Of a stretch of 64,000 nt of DNA, positions 1-17,496 are shown in pieces. The position numbers and the translations under genes are program-made. The first letter of the stretch is position 1, and every line of letters begins with the position of its first letter. This DNA comes from Solirubrobacterales bacterium (GTDB taxonomy: Bacteria; Actinomycetota; Thermoleophilia; Solirubrobacterales; 70-9). Location of the stretch: the NCBI GenBank assembly GCA_035997045.1, contig DASYIY010000071.1, positions 6,358-70,357 on the forward strand, in the 5' to 3' direction. Below the pieces are notes generated by a model that saw nothing but the letters and a program-made list of their open reading frames with translations, had not been told where the DNA came from and did not search any database.

Positions 1-77
1 TGTGGTGAGCGCACTTACCTTGAAGTGCCCGACAGCGGGGACGACGCGATCGGTGAAGGCTCGGAAGAGGCCAGGAG

Positions 78-3000
78 ATGTACTACCTGGAGAAGGTCGC
101 CGAAGGCGCCGAGGACTACTACTCCGGCGAGGGCGAGGAGGCCGGGCAGTGGCTTGGTGACGCCGCCGCCGAGCTAGGGCTGTCGGGCGAGATCGAGCCG
201 GACCAGCTCGTGGCGATGCTGACCGGCATGAACCCCGCGACGGGCGAGCCGCTTGGGCTGCGGGCCGTCGCCGGTAACGGCGCGGTCCCCGGCTTCGATC
301 TCACCTTCTCGGCTCCCAAGTCGGTCTCCCTGACCTGGGCGCTCGGCGGCCCGAAGGCTGCCGACGAGGTCAAGGCCGCGCACCAGCGCTCGGTTGAAGT
401 TGCGCTCGGCTACATGCAGCGGGAGGCTTGCTGGACGAGGCGAGGGACCGACAGCGCGGGCGAGAGGGTCTTCCTCCAGGGCAACGGCTTCCTCGCCGCC
501 GGCTACCTGCACCGCTCGTCGCGAAACGGAGATCCGCAGCTGCATACGCATGTGCTGATCGCCAACGCGACCAAGGGGCCGGACGGCAAGTGGACCCGCC
601 TCTACCACCCCGCGATCTACGACCACGCCAAGACGGCGGGCTACATCTACGAGGCGCACCTACGCCACGAACTGACCCGGATGCTCGGAGTCGAGTGGCA
701 GCCGGTTCGCAAGGGGATCGCTGAGATCAAGGGCTTCAAGGACGAGTGGCTGAAGGCGTTCTCGACCCGGCGCGCGGAAATACTCGAGGCGGCCGGGGAG
801 GGTGCCTCAGCCCGCGCTCGCCAGGTCGCCACGCTCGCCACCCGCAAGACGAAGGAGAAGGGGCTTGAGCCTGGGAGTCTGCGCGAGCGCTGGCTAGCCA
901 AAGCCGAGGAGATCGGCTTGGACCGCGACGCCATCGCGGCGACGATGGGCAAGGAGGTCGAGCTTGCCGCCAAGCTGACGCTGGCGCAGCTCGACCGCGA
1001 GGTGACGGCCCACGCCTCCCACTTCGACCGCCGCGACGCGATCCAGGCGGTTGCCAACCTGCTTCCCAACGGTGCCCCCGGCCATGAGGTCGAGAGCGCC
1101 GCCGATGCCTTCCTCGCTTCCGGGTCGGTGGTCACCGTGGCCGAGACCGTCAAAGGCACCCGCTACACGACCACGCGCATCTGGGAGCTTGAGCGCGAAG
1201 CGCTGAAGACGGCCGAACAGATGGCGAAGGAGGCCCGCGGCGAGGCCGGCGAGCTGGTCGCCGCCAGGGTGATCGCGGCCCGGCCGACCCTGAAGCCCGA
1301 CCAGCGCGAGATGGTCCGCCGCCTGCTCGCCGGTCGCGAGGGCATCGTCGTGGTGGTCGGAGAGGCGGGCACCGGCAAGAGCTTCGCCACCGTCGCCGCA
1401 GCCGAAGGCTGGGCGCAAGCAGGCTTCGAGCTACGAGCAGCGGCACCGACATGGCGGGCCGCCAACGTCCTTCGCGGCGATGGCCTTGAGGCGACGACCG
1501 TTGCCGGTCTGCTTCGCGACCTTGATCGCGGTGAGGTTGGCCTTTCCTCCCGCTCGATTCTCTTGGTCGATGAGGCCGGGATGGTCGGCTCGGAGGATCT
1601 GACCCGAGTGATCGGCCACGCCGATGAGGCCGGAGCGAAGCTGGTCCTGGTCGGAGACCCAGAGCAGCTTGGCCCGATCGAGGCGGGCGGGTTGTTCTCG
1701 GCGATCGCAGAGCGCACCGAGCCCGTCCACCTCCACGAAGTGATCCGCCACAACCACGAGCTCGACCGCGAGGCGGCGAAGCTCATCCGCGAGGGGGAGG
1801 GACGGGAGGCCCTGAGCCTCTACCGATCCGAGGAGCGGATCACGGTTGCCGGGAACGCCGAGGAGCGCCGTGTGGTGATGGTCGAGGACTGGTGGCGCTC
1901 TTACTCCCAGGGCGAGGACGCGCTGATGGTGGCGAAGCGAAACGTCGAGGTCGAGCGCTTGAACGCGACCGCGCGCGAGCTGGTCCGATCCGAAGGCAGG
2001 TTGGGCAGCGAGGAGATCGAAGTCGGCGGCGCTGCCTTCGCTGCCGGCGATCAAGTCATCACCCGCGTCAACGACCGCGCCGGCGCATCTACAACCGCGA
2101 GCGCTGGGAGATCGCCCAGGTGGACGCCGAGCACGGGCGGATCGTCCTTGAGGGCATCGACCAGGCCCGGCGCGTCGAGGTCGGCCGCGACTATCTGGAC
2201 CGCACCACCTTGGGCGGCGAGGCTCCGGCCCTGCAACACGCCTACGCCGTCACTACTTACTGCGCCCAGGGCACCACCGTCGACCGGGCCTACGTCATGG
2301 CCGATCCGAGCATGGACAAGCAGGAGTTCTACGTCGCCACGTCGCGCACACGCGAGCAGACCTACCTCTACGCCACGCCGGAGATCCAGGCCGAGCGCAG
2401 CGAGTACGCGCCTGCCGGGCCGGAGCGAGACGCCATCGCTCACGTTGGCGAAGCAGCAGAGCGCGACCGCGCCCAGACCGCCGCGCACGACGAGGCGCTA
2501 CGAGGAGAACTGGCGAAGCTGCCCACGGCGGAGATCGCGGCGAAGCGAAGCGAGCTTGGCACCCCGGCCCGCTTCGAGGCGCAACATGAGGAGAGCTACG
2601 CGCGTCAGCTCCGCGCGGTCGAGGAACGGCGCGGCCAGGTCGAGCAGGCGAGCGCCAACCGCGAAGCGGTTGAAGCGCTCGGCTGGCGCGAGCGCCGCCA
2701 CAAGCTGCCCCGCGCCAGCGAAAGCGAGCGGCTATTCAGCGAACGGCTGGCCGAGGAGAGGGCGCGGCTGGCGCAGATGGAGCCGCCGAGTAGTGCGGCT
2801 CGGCGCGAGCGCGAGATTGCCGGCCAGCTTCTCGACACCCGCTCGGCGCAAGCGCTCACAGCCGCGAGGATCGAGCCGCCCGCCTACATCGTCAAAGAGC
2901 TAGGGCAAAGGCCCGCCGATCCAGCGAAGGCCAAAGCCTGGGATAGCGGTGTCCAAAGCATCGAGGGATACCGGCTGGGACATGGCGTGAAGGACACCCG

Positions 3001-3163
3001 CAATGCCCTCGGCCGCGAGCCGCAAGACGCGGCAGCGCGAGCGGCTCGCGAGGCAGCCCGGCGAAGGCTTGCCGAGACTCAGCGCAGGCTCGGCCTTGAG
3101 CATCTAGTCAAGACCAGGCAGAGGACGAGGAGCATCGAGCGAGGCTTCAGCATTGGACGATGA
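78..3163 (+). pseudogene. MobF-family (TrwC/TraA-like) conjugative relaxase fused to a RecD-like helicase, split by an apparent 1-nt deletion near 2079-2086
   Basis: The frame starting at 78 carries the relaxase His motif (HRSSRNGDPQLHTHVLIAN), Walker A (VVVGEAGTGKSF) and Walker B (LLVDEAGMV). After ...VITRVNDR this frame turns into Arg/Pro/Ser-rich junk. The 1892..3163 frame continues sensibly (IYNRERWEIAQVD...AYAVTTYCAQGTTVD...FYVATSRTRE). Only 8 nt (gccggcgc) lie where 9 are needed to stay in frame. The AGGAG sits directly against the ATG at 78, so the N-terminus may also be damaged. Confidence 0.8.
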
Positions 3164-3288
3164 GCGCCCCGACCCGTTTGATCGAAGCACCGCGCTCGCG
3201 GCCGTCAACCCCTTCGGGGCCGGGCGCTTCGCGCCCTTGACTGCCGCTCTCGCGGCGCTGGTTGGCGGGTAGGTCGGAGCAGAAAGAT

Positions 3289-5928
3289 TCAGGTTTGATC
3301 GGGGGGAACACGGGTCATGAGCCAGTCGCGCTCTATCTCTTCGTAGAGCTGCCGAAGTTTGCGAGCATGTGGATGGGCTTGACGACCTTTATCCATCTGA
3401 TTCCTTGCAAACTCAAGCTCCTCGGCTCGCTCGTCTGGAGACAAGCTGGCCTTTCGGGTCCAGACAAGAATTTGACTACCGAAGACATGCCAGACATGAA
3501 CATCTCTGGTGCCGCGTCGGTCAATCTGATCAAGCAGGATCTGCTTAGCTTGCTCGACCTTGTCGCGGGCATCCACAGCATCTGGGTCCAGATACGCTGA
3601 CTTCAAGAGATAGTAGGCCCACTCTGTTTCTACTCGATAGTCATGCTCGCCACCAGCCTTTGCCTGCTGGAGAAAATTACCGGCATGGCGAATGTTGCCG
3701 TGCTGAACCTCGAAAGCCCCCCGCTGAAGCCAGTAGTGGTATGAACTACTGAGCGCCTCCTCCAGCGAGTCATAGATGGCGCGCGCGTCATCAACGCGAA
3801 ACGTCTTACCTATACGACCGTGCCCAATGAGGGCAGTTAGAAGCTTTGCATTGCGAGATTTTCGTTTTCCAGGCGTCGTCCGCATAGCCATCATGTGCGC
3901 GAGGCCCCTGTAGGGCTCAAGCATCTGACCCCGACGGCTCAATTCGTTGACTACAACTTCAGCCAACCTACGATGCCTAACCCGTATGTTATCTCCCCCC
4001 GGATTTGAAAGCAGACGTCTCGCAAGTAGGCGATCTAGTGCATATAGACCGGTGTTACTTATATCGCCAGCCGCAATAAGAATCTCATCCTTCGTTAGTC
4101 CGAAACGAAGTTCAGTAGAAATCGCTAGGACAGCGTAAATCAACTTTTGCTCAGGTTCAAGACTTTCGAACTCCTCAGTAACCTTTAGTTCAAAGCGCTC
4201 CCCCGAAGTCGCCTCAATCATCGCTACAAGTAGCTCCCTATTGCACTCATGGCGGATACGTTCTATCCGTGCGGCATGCGTGAGTTTCTTTAGAGCGCCA
4301 AGCTTGTTGTCTTTCTCTAGCGCAGAGACCAGTAACTCGATGTCACTATCTTCAAGGAGTGGAACGTTAATCTCCTTATAGAGTCCATCGTCAAGATTCT
4401 GGCCCAGAATATGATCCAGACGGGTTACTCGCATACCCAAAATAAGGGTCACATGTGGAAGTGAACTCTTTTGATCCTTCAGTAGATCTCTTAGCGATAG
4501 TCCGAATGTATCGGCGTCATCAATGACAACCGTCAGATCGTTTTGTTGCTCCACAAGTGCTCTCGACAGGTCGTGAGCGTCGAAATCGTGATCAGCCCCA
4601 ATCCAACGTACGTCTCTGCCATCGGCGACCATGCGTAGCGCTAGGCGTCGAAGGGCAGTGGAGGTTCCAGAGCCGGCGGTACCGGCAACGACAATGCAGC
4701 CCTCTAGCTGAACTGGATCGAGCTGGCGTTCAAAATCGCGTTCGATGGCTCGACCCGAGCGAATGTCCTCCCAACTAGGTTCAGCCCCCATCAGATAATC
4801 AGAGCGAGTGGTGTCAGGGAGGCTTGCCAGTTCAGAAACCAGTGGAAGGCTAACTTCTCCTGTTCGCGGCGCGGCAGTTCTTCGAACGAGGTGCCCTTTT
4901 CGGGCGGCATCATCGAGCTCGGCCAACACCTCTATTGCAAACTCGTCAACTGTCGCGCGTATCCACCGAATATTGAAGGTCGCGAGCATTAGCTGGCGAT
5001 CTTTAGGCAGCTGAGGGGTTACAAGGAAAGAGACTGGCCGCATCTCTCTCACGCCCCGAGTTCCTCGGGAGTCGCGCATCGCGATGTATTGCCAAAACAA
5101 TGACTCTCGAATCTCAGTGCCGACAAAGACGGCTGTGTATGAAAGGAGGTCAGCCGTTAGTTGTCGATACAGAGGGTTTTCCTGGAGATGTCGCTGGCCG
5201 TACTGAGGGTCAGCAAAGGTTACGTCGGGAACATCATCGAGGGTTCCATTGAGATGGGTATAAAGAAGCTTGCCTTCGGTGACGGTTGGCAGTTGACCGT
5301 GAAGTCCCGAGTGAGGCACTATCTTGTTTGGAAGATCAAAACGTCGGGAGGCGGCGATCTCTAGGTCGTCGATATTGAGCGTGTAAGCCCTGCGCCAGGG
5401 GAGCGAAAGCCAAAGCTTGTGAATCTCACCGAGACTGTCGGGTGCAACGCGGAGTCGCTTATTAAGGAGCTCGGTAAGTCGAGTTCGGCCTTGGGCCAAG
5501 GCTACGGCGTAGGTGTCTGCGAGGGTTGAACCTTCGTCGGGCTCCTCTCCGGGTTCGATCAGGTCCCAGATGGCTCGCTTAAGTTCGGTGCCTTGCGGGA
5601 CCTGTTCACCCTCAGCGTTGCTTGCACCTGCCGAGAAGCCGGCACCAGTAAAGAGCACCACCTCTCCACGGGCCATTTGGGCTCGAAGGCGCTCAATTGC
5701 GAGATCCCGATCCTCCACGTTGAAAAAGCTACTGGCGGAGTCGGCGGTTCTCTTCTCGGTTGCGCGCTGCCTGTGGGGGCCCATGACGTTGTCAAATGGA
5801 GGATTCACGGCTGGATGTACCGGGGCATGGTCGGTAAGCCCTAGGGGCCTCCCCGCAAAAGGCGCTATCGAGAGCCATGGCATCGAGCGTCCGGGCGTGG
5901 GTGCCTCGCCGTGCCACCGTCGTGCCAC
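3289..5928 (-). CDS. SIR2-like domain / P-loop NTPase (STAND-like) / winged-helix-like / TPR-like helical repeat protein; candidate single-gene antiphage defence protein (Avs5/SIR2-STAND-like)
   Basis: 879-aa ORF. SIR2_2-type motifs: VVLFTGAGFS, YTLNIDDL, YTHLNGTL, VFVGTEIRE. P-loop: IVVAGTAGSGTST. Walker B: LTVVIDDAD. The C-terminal region is helical with TPR-like repeats. A/T-ending codons are far more frequent than in neighbouring genes. The GTG start at 5928 is uncertain; alternative ATGs lie at 5883, 5784 and 5676. Confidence 0.8.
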   Translation of the reverse strand: MARRWHGEAPTPGRSMPWLSIAPFAGRPLGLTDHAPVHPAVNPPFDNVMGPHRQRATEKRTADSASSFFNVEDRDLAIERLRAQMARGEVVLFTGAGFSAGASNAEGEQVPQGTELKRAIWDLIEPGEEPDEGSTLADTYAVALAQGRTRLTELLNKRLRVAPDSLGEIHKLWLSLPWRRAYTLNIDDLEIAASRRFDLPNKIVPHSGLHGQLPTVTEGKLLYTHLNGTLDDVPDVTFADPQYGQRHLQENPLYRQLTADLLSYTAVFVGTEIRESLFWQYIAMRDSRGTRGVREMRPVSFLVTPQLPKDRQLMLATFNIRWIRATVDEFAIEVLAELDDAARKGHLVRRTAAPRTGEVSLPLVSELASLPDTTRSDYLMGAEPSWEDIRSGRAIERDFERQLDPVQLEGCIVVAGTAGSGTSTALRRLALRMVADGRDVRWIGADHDFDAHDLSRALVEQQNDLTVVIDDADTFGLSLRDLLKDQKSSLPHVTLILGMRVTRLDHILGQNLDDGLYKEINVPLLEDSDIELLVSALEKDNKLGALKKLTHAARIERIRHECNRELLVAMIEATSGERFELKVTEEFESLEPEQKLIYAVLAISTELRFGLTKDEILIAAGDISNTGLYALDRLLARRLLSNPGGDNIRVRHRRLAEVVVNELSRRGQMLEPYRGLAHMMAMRTTPGKRKSRNAKLLTALIGHGRIGKTFRVDDARAIYDSLEEALSSSYHYWLQRGAFEVQHGNIRHAGNFLQQAKAGGEHDYRVETEWAYYLLKSAYLDPDAVDARDKVEQAKQILLDQIDRRGTRDVHVWHVFGSQILVWTRKASLSPDERAEELEFARNQMDKGRQAHPHARKLRQLYEEIERDWLMTRVPPDQT

Positions 5929-6034
5929 CCTGTGCCACCGTCACAACCGGATTCAGCCGGAGTCAACCGGACTCGGATGCGGTCCCGCCAGGTCTCCGCA
6001 AACCGCTCTAGCAAGCCGAATTTGAGGCCATAAG

Positions 6035-6123
6035 CGGAGGGGGAGGGATTCGAACCCTCGAGACACCTTTCGATGTCTGCCGGTTTTCAAGACCGGTGCA
6101 TTCAACCGCTCTGCCACCCCTCC
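6035..6123 (-). tRNA. tRNA-Ser (anticodon UGA)
   Basis: Cloverleaf read by hand on the minus strand: GGAGGGG acceptor stem, anticodon loop CTTGAAA, long variable arm, T-arm GAGGGTTCGAATCCCTC, discriminator G. No CCA is encoded. Confidence 0.9.
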
Positions 6124-6181
6124 GGGGAGTAAGCGCACGCCCGATGCTAGACGCCATGGCCGAGGACTGCGATCGCTCTAG

Positions 6182-14735: not shown

Positions 14736-14779
14736 TTCGCGCAGGGGTCGCAGCGCCCGGGCCTTGCAAGGATTCGCGC

Positions 14780-14905
14780 GTGGTCGAGGGTTCCGCAGAG
14801 CAGAACGTCAACTTGGTCGCTGAGCTGCATCGGCGGCAGGGCGAGATGTATGCGGGTGGCTCTGGGCTGCGGGCGAGCCGCGTTAGCTCCCTCCGCCGCG
14901 TTTGA
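14780..14905 (+). pseudogene. Possible N-terminal fragment of an NTF2/SnoaL-like gene
   Basis: 41-codon ORF (VVEGSAEQNVNLVAELHRRQGEMYAGG...). It resembles the N-terminus of NTF2-like proteins, then terminates just before the convergent P450 stop. Confidence 0.25.
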
Positions 14906-14913
14906 ACTCGCCG

Positions 14914-16275
14914 CTAGGCGGCCACGGGCGCTTTTCGGCGCTTAGCCAGGATGGCTTGTGCCCCATGCGAGGGCCTGACCGTGATGTTGCGGCGGCGGGC
15001 AACCTCGGGGCCAGTGGCTTTGGGCATGAGCTCGAAGCTGGCGAGGGCGCTGCGGAGGACGATCTTCATCTCCAGCATCGCGAAGCTGGCGCCCAGACAA
15101 CGGCGGCGGCCGCCGCCGAAGGGGATCCAGGTGTAGGTGCCCGGTTGCTCGTCGAGGAAGCGCTCCGGGCGGAAGGTGTCGGGATCCGGATAGATCTCGG
15201 GGTCGTGGTGGATCAGGTAGCTGTTGAGGACGAGGCTGCAGCCCACCGGATAGGTCCAGCCGCCGATCTCGATCGGCTTGGCGACCAGGCGGGGGGCGAC
15301 GTTGGGCAGCACTGGCCGGATCCGCAGCGTCTCCTGGATCGTCGCCGTCAGGTAGGCGTCCTCGCCGGCGTCGATCTCCTCGACCAGCCGGTCCAGCACC
15401 CGCGGGTCGTGGCCGAGGCGCTCGAAGGCCCAGGCTAGGGTCGAGGCCGTCGTCTCGTGGCCGGCGATCAGCAGCGTCATCAGCTCGTCGCGGATCTCCT
15501 GCTCGCCCATCGGCGAACCGTCGTCGTGGCGCGCCTCGACCAGCATCGCCAGCACGTCGTCGCGCTCGGCGCTTTCTGTACGGCGCTCGACGATCAGCTC
15601 GAAGAGCAGCTCGTCGACCTCTTCCTGCATGCGGACGAAGTGGGCGAAGGGGCCGACTCGTTCGGCGATCCGCGCCGCAACGCTGTCCTTCGGCGGCGGC
15701 ATCAGGCTGACCGGCTTGTCGCCGAACTCGAGCATCGCCTGCAGCCGCTCGCGAAGGGTCTCGAAGCGCGCCCCGGGATCGAGCCCGAAGACGGCGCGGA
15801 GGATGATCCTCAGCGTCAGGTCCTGCATGCGCGGGTGCAGTTCGACCGGCACGTCTCGCGGCAGCTGCGCCAGCTCCTCGCTCGTCACTTCTTCCATCAG
15901 GCCGGTCAGGCGCTCCATGCGCTCGCCGTGGAAGGCCGGCAGCAGCAGCTTGCGCTGTCCCATGTGCGCCGATTCGTCGAGCAGCAGCACCGAGTTGCCG
16001 CCGACTATCGGCTCGAGGACGCGCGCTCCCTGGCCCGGGCGCAGGACGTCGGGCGGGGCGGTGAAGACTTCCTTCACCTCCGCCGGGTCGGTCAGCATCA
16101 CGAAGGACGGCGAGAGCGGCAGCTTGATCGTGAAGCGCTTGCCGTAGCGCTCGCGGCACTGCCGCAGGAAGGCGAAGGGGCGCGTCCAGAAGCCGATGCT
16201 CTGGATCGCGGAGGGGTAAGGGGGACCGGGCGGTAGGCCAGTTGGTCTCATCTTCTCGACCGTCGAGTATTCCAC
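14914..16275 (-). CDS. Cytochrome P450 (paralogue of 10378..11805)
   Basis: FGGGRRRCLGASFA heme signature and AGHETTA I-helix. Alignable along its length with the other P450. GTG start. Confidence 0.9.
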   Translation of the reverse strand: MEYSTVEKMRPTGLPPGPPYPSAIQSIGFWTRPFAFLRQCRERYGKRFTIKLPLSPSFVMLTDPAEVKEVFTAPPDVLRPGQGARVLEPIVGGNSVLLLDESAHMGQRKLLLPAFHGERMERLTGLMEEVTSEELAQLPRDVPVELHPRMQDLTLRIILRAVFGLDPGARFETLRERLQAMLEFGDKPVSLMPPPKDSVAARIAERVGPFAHFVRMQEEVDELLFELIVERRTESAERDDVLAMLVEARHDDGSPMGEQEIRDELMTLLIAGHETTASTLAWAFERLGHDPRVLDRLVEEIDAGEDAYLTATIQETLRIRPVLPNVAPRLVAKPIEIGGWTYPVGCSLVLNSYLIHHDPEIYPDPDTFRPERFLDEQPGTYTWIPFGGGRRRCLGASFAMLEMKIVLRSALASFELMPKATGPEVARRRNITVRPSHGAQAILAKRRKAPVAA

Positions 16276-16485
16276 GACTGAGAGATTTGCTTCAATCGGA
16301 TCACCAGAGAAAGGAGGTGGTCCTATTTTGAGTCACATGCTTCAGGGGACACTGGAGGTGCAGGGCCGCTAGGCGCCGCACTGTTTCGGCCGCCCGGCGG
16401 AATCCAACCCGGGCACCGGCGAGCAAAGGGAGACCGGGCGTTGTCCCACCCGGCCGTGGTTCCCGCGTTCGTTCCCAAGCACCTG

Positions 16486-16513
16486 GCAAGGGCCGCCTCC
16501 GGGCGGCCCTTGC
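16486..16513 (+). terminator. Orphan 12-bp GC-rich hairpin followed by TCTTTG
   Basis: GCAAGGGCCGCC-tccg-GGCGGCCCTTGC, then tctttg. No annotated plus-strand gene lies upstream. Confidence 0.4.
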
Positions 16514-16564
16514 TCTTTGATCGCGCCTTGCAATGCAAGTGCTCCGCAGGCTAGGGTGGGCGCA

Positions 16565-16852
16565 ATGGCGGTCAAGCTTCATCGCTGCTCGGCAATGTGG
16601 GTCAAGATCGACGCCCACCCCTGCTGGCGTGTGCAGAAGGCACTCGATGAGCAGGGGGTCGAGTACGAGGTCGTCAAGGGGCCGCTGCGCCCCGGCAAGC
16701 GCGAAGAGCTCGACCAGCTCTCGGGCCAGCGCAAGTACCCGGTGATCGAGTTCGAGGACGGCCGCTCCTACCGCGCCGAGTCCGCCGAGATGGCGGAGAA
16801 GATCCGCGCCGGAGAGCTTTTCGACGGGCCCGCGGCCGGCCCAGCCGCGTAG
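16565..16852 (+). CDS. Small thioredoxin-fold protein (glutaredoxin / GST N-terminal-like)
   Basis: 95 aa. MAVKLHRCS..HPCWRVQKALDEQGVEYEVV...KYPVIEFEDG resembles glutaredoxin-like thioredoxin-fold proteins. Confidence 0.5.
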   Translation: MAVKLHRCSAMWVKIDAHPCWRVQKALDEQGVEYEVVKGPLRPGKREELDQLSGQRKYPVIEFEDGRSYRAESAEMAEKIRAGELFDGPAAGPAA

Positions 16853-17496
16853 TGGCCAAGCTCAGGTTCCAGATCTCGGTCTCGCTCGACGGCTTCATCG
16901 CCGGACCGGACCCGAGTGAGGAGGACCCGCTCGGCAAGGGCGGGATGCAGCTGCACGAGTGGGCCTTCAAGCTCGCCGCCTGGCGCGAGCCGCACGGCCG
17001 CGAGGGCGGCGAGGTCAACGCCAGCACCGCGATCATGGAGGAAGCGCTCAGCAACGTCGGCGCGACCGTGATGGGCCGCAAGATGTTCGGCGGCGATCCG
17101 GGGCCCTGGGGCGAGGATCCGTGGGATGGCTGGTGGGGTGACGACCCGCCCTTCCACACCCCCGTCTTCGTCCTCACCCACCACGAGCGCGAGCCGCTGG
17201 AGAAGCAGGGCGGCACGAACTTCACCTTCGTCACCGACGGCATCGAGTCGGCGCTGGAGCAGGCCAAGCAGGCGGCCGGCGGCAAGGACGTCTCGCTCGG
17301 CGGCGGCGCCGACGTCGCCCAGCAGTACCTGGCGGCTGGCCTTATCGACGTGCTCGAACTCAACGTCGTGCCGGTCCTGCTCGGCAGCGGCACGCGGCTC
17401 TTCGACAACCTCGGCGGTGCCGACCTCGGCTTCGAGCAGGTGCGGGCGATCGAAGCCCCCGGCGTCACCCACCTCAAGTACAGCCTCTCCGCCTAG
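16852..17496 (+). CDS. Dihydrofolate reductase family protein (RibD C-terminal domain-like)
   Basis: FQISVSLDGFIAGPD...VMGRKMF...PVFVLTHH...VVPVLLGSGTRLF. GTG start overlaps the upstream stop. Confidence 0.75.
   Translation: MAKLRFQISVSLDGFIAGPDPSEEDPLGKGGMQLHEWAFKLAAWREPHGREGGEVNASTAIMEEALSNVGATVMGRKMFGGDPGPWGEDPWDGWWGDDPPFHTPVFVLTHHEREPLEKQGGTNFTFVTDGIESALEQAKQAAGGKDVSLGGGADVAQQYLAAGLIDVLELNVVPVLLGSGTRLFDNLGGADLGFEQVRAIEAPGVTHLKYSLSA

Follow-up and report, generated by a model that had tools for sequence, protein, structure and literature searches.

A putative SIR2-STAND immune sensor of the nSTAND5 type, a remote relative of Avs5 from a clade lacking the Walker A lysine

Introduction

The closest described systems are the Avs5 proteins EfAvs5 and PaAvs5, which are triggered by phage proteins and deplete NAD+ via their SIR2 domain upon filament formation (PMC11897194, PMC12931631). 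Their nucleotide-binding oligomerisation domain (NOD) was described as nSTAND3 (PMC11897194, PMC12931631). In the case of EfAvs5, ATP is bound, with phosphate contacts from Lys379 and Ser380, and is not hydrolysed (PMC11897194, PMC12931631). All SIR2-STAND immunity characterised so far comes from Pseudomonadota and involves an nSTAND3 NOD. Here, we analysed a related gene from a Solirubrobacterales bacterium. It lies on the minus strand of a 64,000-nucleotide stretch of DNA (the window; GenBank assembly GCA_035997045.1, contig DASYIY010000071.1, positions 6,358 to 70,357 of the forward strand) and encodes a protein with an N-terminal SIR2_2-type domain, a NOD of the nSTAND5 type and a C-terminal helical region. 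An earlier reading of the DNA letters (the sequence-only reading) had regarded it as a candidate Avs/STAND-type NAD-depleting antiphage protein.

Other described proteins share one half of this layout. DSR2, ThsA of Thoeris and KomC of Kongming have the SIR2_2 effector fold and its active-site residues, but they are without a STAND NTPase. Their activity is governed differently in each case: in ThsA through a gcADPR-binding SLOG domain, in DSR2 through a long helical domain that recognises a tail-tube protein, and in KomC through KomB and dITP. MalT, Apaf-1, CED-4 and NLRC4 share the order of nucleotide-binding domain (NBD), helical domain and winged-helix domain (WHD) followed by a repeat sensor. 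However, they carry other effectors. Of the nSTAND clades, the text of the 2021 paper that introduced them treats nSTAND1 and nSTAND2 alone. Both the SIR2-STAND architecture and the logic behind it were known, and the combination of the two domains found here is catalogued in Pfam.

Our analysis points, with fair though not high confidence, to a single-protein immune sensor of the abortive-infection type. It would be a SIR2-STAND protein and a distant nSTAND5 sister of Avs5, and its gene would be low-G+C cargo of a TrwC-type integrative mobilisable or conjugative element, at the end nearest the tRNA.

Results

Gene boundaries and domain architecture

The open reading frame (ORF) at 3289-5928 was present as the sequence-only reading had described it, with 879 minus-strand codons that begin at GTG 5928 and end before a stop codon at 3289-3291. 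The true start, however, is almost certainly GTG 5718, which gives a protein of 809 rather than 879 residues. This assignment was made because six close homologues from the homologue search were exactly 809 residues long, the orthologues in three loci (L081, L002 and L003) began at the codon aligned with GTG 5718, and DNA similarity to five orthologous loci (including these three and L001) ended at nt 5719 in blastn. The extension of the maximal ORF from 5719 to 5928 is probably not translated. Residues are numbered below on the 809-residue protein.

Four parts had been proposed for the protein from the motifs VVLFTGAGFS, YTLNIDDL, YTHLNGTL, VFVGTEIRE, IVVAGTAGSGTST and LTVVIDDAD and a winged-helix stretch. 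All of these were found in the translation, and the layout held up in the profile search. Pfam nSTAND_NTPase5 (PF25199) matched with 76 bits against a gathering threshold of 34 (E=3.5e-21, profile positions 1-139 of 145), and SIR2_2 (PF13289) matched with 28.6 bits against a cut-off of 24.5. The Pfam models for nSTAND3 (19.1 bits vs a cut-off of 27.2), NACHT and AAA were all sub-threshold on the protein. An AlphaFold2 (AF2) model built on 66 homologues was confident (pLDDT 89.3, pTM 0.87), and a second model of the NOD and C-terminus alone reached a pLDDT of 93.0. Both showed the STAND core of NBD, helical domain and winged helix followed by a repeat or sensor domain (pLDDT 89-93). The features are listed in Table 1.

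Table 1. Coordinates of the SIR2-nSTAND5 gene, its domains and motifs, and the neighbouring features in the window
Feature	Position	Strand	Residues, evidence and remarks
TrwC-type relaxase/helicase	72..3163	+	convergent with the SIR2-STAND gene; Pfam TrwC 7.8e-82, AAA_30 9e-52
SIR2-nSTAND5 gene	3289..5718	-	809 codons and stop, start GTG 5718
C-terminal all-helical repeat region, about 10 helices	3292..3924	-	aa 599-809; AF2 pLDDT >90
Invariant YHYWLQRG...E motif	3718-3741	-	C-terminal region
Helical domain and WHD	3925..4359	-	aa 454-598; AF2, Foldseek to MalT, Apaf-1, NLRC4, CED-4
R581-H582-R583 motif	3967-3981	-	in WHD; alignment
STAND NBD	4360..4704	-	aa 339-453; Pfam nSTAND_NTPase5, alignments
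Sensor-1 Arg (Arg430)	4420-4440	-	alignments
Walker B VVIDDAD	4510-4530	-	aa 397-403
Walker A GTAGSGTST, Thr352 at Lys position	4657-4683	-	aa 346-354
Linker/pre-NBD, least conserved segment	4705..4869	-	aa 284-338; AF2 secondary structure, per-domain identity
SIR2_2-type domain, Rossmann-type in model	4870..5718	-	aa 1-283; Pfam SIR2_2, AF2
HLNG with His155	5245-5256	-	SIR2 domain
TLNIDD with Asn115 and Asp117	5365-5382	-	SIR2 domain
GAGFS NAD-binding loop	5632-5646	-	aa 25-29
Non-coding stretch, gene start to tRNA	5719..6033	.	blastn: no homology to any fetched locus
tRNA-Ser(tga)	6034..6123	-	ARAGORN; 3' end toward the SIR2-STAND gene, 316 bp upstream of its start

The SIR2 domain showed the hallmarks of the defence-type SIR2_2 NADases, namely the SIR2_2 fold, the GAG(F)S loop and the Asn and His residues, without a zinc ribbon. 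Asn115, Asp117, Asn157 and Gly158 were invariant in the 66 homologues, and the GAGFS loop and His155 were conserved at >=90% in the same set. A Cys4 zinc ribbon or module was looked for in the protein sequence and none was found.

In the NOD, Walker B, Arg430 and R581-H582-R583 were conserved both in the clade of the window protein, which lacks the Walker A lysine (K-less), and in the lysine-containing (K) clade. The RHR motif was kept in 178 of 179 sequences and is likely equivalent to the MHD/LHD histidine of other STAND proteins, by position rather than by coordinates. The canonical Walker A, GxxxxGK[ST], was not present in the window protein.

The C-terminus had been called tetratricopeptide repeat (TPR)-like. 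It was indeed all-helical and repeat-like in the model. On the other hand, no Pfam TPR model matched this region at E<=1, and relatives gave weak sub-threshold TPR matches. It is presumed to be the sensor.

Comparison with Avs5 and other defence proteins

The full model was compared with the PDB using Foldseek. The top match was EfAvs5, deposited as 'SIR2-STAND' (9jap, E=6e-26 over 895 columns), and the next was the PaAvs5 filament (9nc9, about 1e-16). Further matches were DSR2, KomC and ThsA on the SIR2 part and MalT, Apaf-1, NLRC4 and CED-4 on the NOD. The structural relatives that the sequence-only reading had named, Avs5, DSR2 and ThsA, were thus all among the matches. The Foldseek probability was 1.0 to EfAvs5, MalT, Apaf-1, NLRC4 and CED-4. 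With the SIR2 domain removed, EfAvs5 was still the top match (2.9e-13), followed by PaAvs5, MalT (target-normalised TM-score, TMt, 0.53) and Apaf-1 (query-normalised, TMq, 0.40). The global TM-scores were low, about 0.27-0.41, as expected for a monomer model compared with activated filament subunits. On the SIR2 part, KomC gave a TMt of 0.72-0.79, and DSR2 matched at E~1e-9. In the case of MalT, Apaf-1, CED-4 and NLRC4, sequence similarity was found only at the P-loop, and these proteins have the canonical Walker A lysine.

The family profile matched EfAvs5 with E=8.7e-21 in two stretches, the SIR2 domain and the NOD through the first sensor helices. In this alignment Asn115 corresponded to the catalytic Asn141 of EfAvs5, the P-loops were paired with Thr352 opposite Lys379, Arg430 fell on the 'TTR' arginine, and YHYWLQRG fell on DPHFWVQYA. 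Because the structures matched and the profile match covered the SIR2 domain, the NOD and the start of the sensor, the alignments indicate true, though remote, homology to Avs5 over the full length of the protein.

EfAvs5 (9jap) and PaAvs5 (9nc9) resembled the window protein in being encoded by a single gene, with an N-terminal SIR2 domain, a STAND NOD that includes a winged helix, and a helical sensor of comparable size. The catalytic Asn, the Walker B Asp and the sensor-1 Arg all aligned. However, identity to the window protein was only 12-16%, the NOD was nSTAND3 in Avs5 and nSTAND5 in the window protein, and the Walker A lysine of Avs5 was replaced by threonine. The hosts also differed, with Pseudomonadota for Avs5 and soil Actinomycetota, Acidobacteriota and Chloroflexota for the family of the window protein.

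Strict membership in Avs5 was rejected. The NCBIfam Avs5 equivalog NF041814 scored 13.5 bits over a 29-residue stretch against a cut-off of 1000, no PADLOC AVAST model matched at E<=1, and the Pfam NTPase family was different. The assignment to the Avs5 type was thus not supported as it had been worded; the four-part layout and the closest structures agreed with the sequence-only reading. PADLOC, which the sequence-only reading had proposed as a check, returned only weak SIR2-level matches, to ThsA (2e-4) and Dsr2 (4e-3). Membership in DSR2 or ThsA was rejected as well. In these comparisons the SIR2 part alone matched, neither a SLOG domain nor the long DSR2 helical domain was present, and the scores were far below the cut-offs (12.1 bits vs 1400 for the NCBIfam Dsr2 model).

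We also considered a housekeeping protein deacylase or regulator of the sirtuin type with an ATPase module and no role in conflict. The database names of homologues are simply 'SIR2 family protein', and some loci lie within metabolic neighbourhoods. However, the domain was SIR2_2 rather than canonical SIR2 and had no Cys4 zinc module, and the best structural relatives were all NADase defence effectors. The composition was foreign and the location was in a mobile element, as described below. Occurrence was sporadic, and related genomes carried different paralogues at different tRNA sites. We therefore regard a housekeeping role as very improbable.

Absence of the Walker A lysine

The P-loop had been treated as ordinary in the sequence-only reading, and this did not hold. 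The window protein reads GTAGSGTST where the family consensus is GTAGSGKST, and the lysine is required by both characterised Avs5 proteins. Defence was abolished in EfAvs5 K379A, and immunity was abolished in PaAvs5-1 K363A (PMC11897194, PMC12931631).

The distribution of this residue followed relatedness. In alignment A1, Thr or Val was found in 27/27 sequences at least 43% identical to the window protein, and Lys in 39/39 more distant ones. Among 220 retrieved proteins with a recognisable motif, one for each sampled family cluster, the position was K in 168, T in 38, V in 12 and R in 2, so that Thr or Val occurred in 50 of the 220. A neighbour-joining tree was built from 179 full-length members. 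Of its 43 K-less sequences, 41 formed one pure clade and two lay elsewhere as singletons, and the inferred root state was K. The SIR2-nSTAND5 proteins with the lysine (PF13289+PF25199) were the same in length, domain order and all motifs, with 36-41% full-length identity. They differed from the clade of the window protein in keeping GTAGSGKS[T/A] where the latter has Thr or Val.

The K-less sequences could be dead or decaying copies, in which the loss of the lysine inactivated the switch and the gene hitch-hikes on a degenerating element. Thr352 occupies the position of the lysine that is essential in EfAvs5 and PaAvs5-1, the adjacent relaxase gene is frameshifted, and the two isolated singletons could be dead alleles. 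However, the 41 Thr/Val sequences of the clade were separate sequence clusters reaching down to about 43% identity, and all were intact full-length ORFs. Asp400 and Asp403 were kept in 43/43 K-less sequences, Arg430 in 42/43 and R581-H582-R583 in 43/43. Conservation of the NBD relative to the SIR2 domain was the same in both clades (0.52/0.60 in the K-less clade vs 0.39/0.46 in the K clade). Between the window gene and its orthologues, nonsynonymous divergence (dN) was 0.10-0.36 in every domain and synonymous divergence (dS) was saturated. Since dS was saturated, the result is expressed as dN far below dS rather than as a dN/dS ratio. Horizontal transfer has also carried the clade into Solirubrobacterales and Chloracidobacterium. 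Because the pocket residues were kept, the NBD was as conserved as in the K clade and dN was far below saturated dS, the K-less clade is under strong purifying selection and is not decaying. Dead copies were accordingly judged improbable.

A Lys or Arg that might compensate for the lost lysine was sought by alignment. Clade-specific charge changes were seen in the NBD, with an Arg gained at residue 371 and Arg lost at residues 375 and 385, and the two K-less singletons were without these changes, which are at most candidates for compensation. Since all the other pocket residues stay invariant, we favour retained binding. Nucleotide would most likely still be bound without the lysine and play a structural part as a cofactor; its affinity would be altered, and hydrolysis would probably not occur. 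The contacts would be made by the backbone amides of the P-loop, Ser353/Thr354-Mg2+, Walker B, Arg430 and His582. Activation independent of nucleotide would be the more novel alternative to this lysine-independent binding.

Family size and distribution

The word-indexed search gave 145 clusters, nearly all of about 800-830 residues and with the same two Pfam domains. An exhaustive phmmer search of 1.84 billion representatives with residues 370-879 of the 879-residue ORF gave 1,194 representatives at E<=1e-3, of which 350 reached E<=1e-30. Judged from these sequence matches, the sister family of Avs5 is large, with about 350 clusters at 50% identity and E<1e-30 across soil phyla. The hosts on the actinobacterial side included Solirubrobacterales, Gaiellaceae, Acidimicrobiia, Microbacteriaceae and Nocardia. 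Many Acidobacteriota were found, together with Chloroflexota, Nitrospira, Myxococcota, Gemmatimonadota and Verrucomicrobiota, and the distribution was patchy across these many phyla. The best match among species-level genomes had 76% identity and came from a Solirubrobacterales metagenome-assembled genome. Plasmid and viral collections gave just distant relatives (<=25-39%).

Effector swapping is typical of many Avs families, and it was sought through the search with residues 370-879; no alternative effector was found. Two longer relatives (P0167 and P0180, about 1,010-1,030 residues) kept SIR2 and had an extra N-terminal DUF7226 in front of it. Six shorter ones of 570-600 residues (P0124, P0125, P0132, P0143, P0146 and P0166) had the nSTAND5 NOD and helical C-terminus with ~60 residues ahead and without SIR2. 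These may be split systems with a separate effector, or truncated gene calls or fragments.

Composition and mobile-element context

The gene had been described as the only A/T-rich stretch of the window, and this was borne out. Its G+C was 0.539 against 0.687 for the remaining window, and its G+C at third codon positions (GC3) was 0.526 against 0.83 for the adjacent relaxase gene. Positions 3101-5800 were the sole place in the 64 kb with 600-nt windows below 0.60 G+C. The same tendency was seen elsewhere, with a G+C lower than that of the flanks in 23 of 25 loci. Low GC3 (0.53-0.59) was common to orthologues whose synonymous sites were mutually saturated (L081, L002, L001 and L038 were compared), and ameliorated GC3 was seen only in L001 (0.94) and L038 (0.89). 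This sharing of low GC3 across saturated orthologues means that the gene stayed AT-rich in hosts of about 0.65-0.70 G+C instead of ameliorating. Repeated import from a reservoir of lower G+C is a possible cause, and selection for rare codons or silencing is another.

A horizontally delivered gene without a partner, between a relaxase and a tRNA-Ser, had been proposed. The TrwC-type relaxase lay to its left and tRNA-Ser(tga) to its right. The DNA of the relaxase was 77% identical to that of the relaxase in L081, whose element carries an orthologue with 81% identity. The window gene, the L081 orthologue and the L002 orthologue (71%) made up the three closest orthologues, and all were convergent to a TrwC relaxase. 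Between relaxase and SIR2-STAND gene, other cargo was found in L081 and L002, namely Ymh and HTH genes in one and an RHS toxin in the other. Their vicinity held RES, PIN/FitA, DUF4238 or HEPN/MNT genes and an integrase. Because the cargo in this interval differs, the gene occupies a variable cargo slot in a family of TrwC elements. No conserved neighbour or partner gene was found across the inspected loci; therefore, the gene was taken as a single-gene system.

The relaxase gene carries a frameshift near nt 2085. When the intact TrwC proteins from L081 and L002 were used as tblastn queries, the match ran in frame 3 to 2084 and in frame 2 from 2087 to 3163. The 941-residue ORF at 78-2903 therefore has a wrong-frame tail, and the true C-terminus of the relaxase is in the ORF at 1892-3163. 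The frameshift reflects either a pseudogene, and thus an immobilised element, or an assembly indel.

On the other side, tRNA-Ser(tga) is likely the integration site and the island boundary. To its right, G+C returned to about 0.70 and the genes were of the housekeeping type (MFS transporter, ALO oxidase). The window covers this end of the element; the other end, and with it a comparison of att repeats, lies beyond it. The non-coding stretch between gene and tRNA presumably holds the promoter and the island end. Scans of consensus promoters and terminators gave nothing above shuffle expectation. Four copies of GTGCCWCC, spaced about 10.5 bp (one helical turn), were found at 5901-5942, and by their sequence they look like iterons, arm-type integrase sites or regulator binding sites. 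The tRNA-Ser lies between the two arms of an imperfect inverted repeat of 21 nt (5874-5894 / 6140-6160).

Two related Solirubrobacterales genomes (loci L007 and L082) were syntenic with positions 10-20 kb of the window, as marked by tRNA-Ser(gct) at 100% identity, a P450, pyruvate kinase and tRNA-Arg(acg). At tRNA-Arg(acg) they had an island of ~12.7 kb (L007 3461-16171 / L082 367-13496) with an integrase, PIN/Phd, AbiEii, an AAA_15/21 ATPase and a K-less SIR2-nSTAND5 paralogue of 51-52% identity. At the same site the window had only 2.75 kb (14739-17489), including a probable second P450. The neighbourhood of tRNA-Ser, tRNA-Ser and tRNA-Arg is a multi-site integration hotspot. In 6 of 56 loci, the 3' end of a tRNA or tmRNA lay no more than 2 kb from the gene start and faced it. 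Fewer than one such locus is expected by chance, as a rough estimate from typical bacterial tRNA density rather than a computed value.

Elsewhere, one K-clade member was flanked by two TIR proteins, BrxR, nucleases and HicB, and one K-less member lay amid transposases and a Gp49/HTH pair. Six of nine annotated contexts, a small sample that includes the window and has no formal background control, held defence or mobile-element genes (integrase, TrwC relaxase, PIN/Phd, HEPN-MNT, RES, AbiEii, TIR, BrxR or transposases). Together with the missing partner, these contexts agreed with the proposal of horizontal delivery.

OY969774.1 (loci L001, L004 and L006) carried a three-gene unit, in which genes for a 1367-residue and a 913-residue protein stood beside a 76%-identical SIR2-nSTAND5 gene. 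Neither of the two partner proteins had a Pfam match. The units were tandem repeats and were present at both ends of the 2.58-Mb 'chromosome' record. The repeat is probably an artefact of circularisation or assembly, or else a real tandem duplication.

The protein might instead serve the mobile element, so that phages would not be its primary target. It would sense competing plasmids or integrative and conjugative elements, or the loss of its own element, and would act in exclusion or post-segregational stabilisation. The three closest orthologues are convergent to TrwC relaxases and occupy the variable cargo slot in elements related to one another, genes of the family often have toxin-antitoxin addiction modules as neighbours, and close homologues were absent from the phage contigs searched. 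However, many family members have no adjoining conjugation genes, the K-clade member with TIR and BrxR lies in a classical defence island, and those structural relatives that have been characterised respond to phage proteins. We consider a role of this kind unlikely, if less so than decay of the K-less copies.

Discussion

The preferred reading remains a single-protein SIR2-STAND immune sensor. The present data show the architecture and fold, the conservation of residues, the selection and the mobile context, and the working model takes the trigger, the assembly and the NADase activity from EfAvs5 and PaAvs5. At rest, the protein would be an auto-inhibited monomer, with the nucleotide pocket shut between the NBD and the winged helix, as the invariant RHR motif suggests. 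A protein of a phage or another invader would bind the conserved C-terminal helical domain. The NOD would then open and self-associate into an oligomer or filament, by analogy with the EfAvs5 and PaAvs5 filaments. Assembly would juxtapose the SIR2 domains, and the site formed by Asn115, Asp117 and His155, which are present and invariant or nearly so, would hydrolyse NAD+ and arrest the infected cell. The protein is thus a predicted NADase with putative antiphage activity. In the case of the K-less clade, the NOD would open and assemble with Thr or Val in place of the Walker A lysine.

Several points weigh against this reading. PADLOC and the NCBIfam defence models did not recognise the protein, and the literature searched contained no mention of nSTAND5 or PF25199 and no experiment on any nSTAND5 protein. 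The lysine whose substitution abolished the function of EfAvs5 and PaAvs5-1 is absent, and the threonine in its place could mean that the canonical switch was lost. A search of 2.9 million viral contigs gave no close relatives. The C-terminal domain was not hypervariable by per-domain identity. Finally, the remaining three of the nine contexts had nothing defence-like, and L003 and L085 were among them, amid ordinary metabolic genes.

What is new here is an uncharacterised nSTAND5 sister family of Avs5 that is dominant in soil phyla, together with a well-supported clade without the Walker A lysine. In elements of the Solirubrobacterales type, the locus further reveals cargo slots next to relaxases and next to tRNAs, through which different paralogues of one and the same defence gene are exchanged. 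More tentatively, and with the odds somewhat against it, the 41-cluster clade may be a functional antiviral STAND lineage without the lysine, whose switch has either dropped canonical ATP binding or come to use a re-wired pocket or ligand. An active clade would be a natural experiment on how far a bacterial NLR-like receptor needs an ATP/ADP switch. Such a natural 'P-loop-lysine-independent' receptor would reveal what STAND activation truly requires of the nucleotide cycle.

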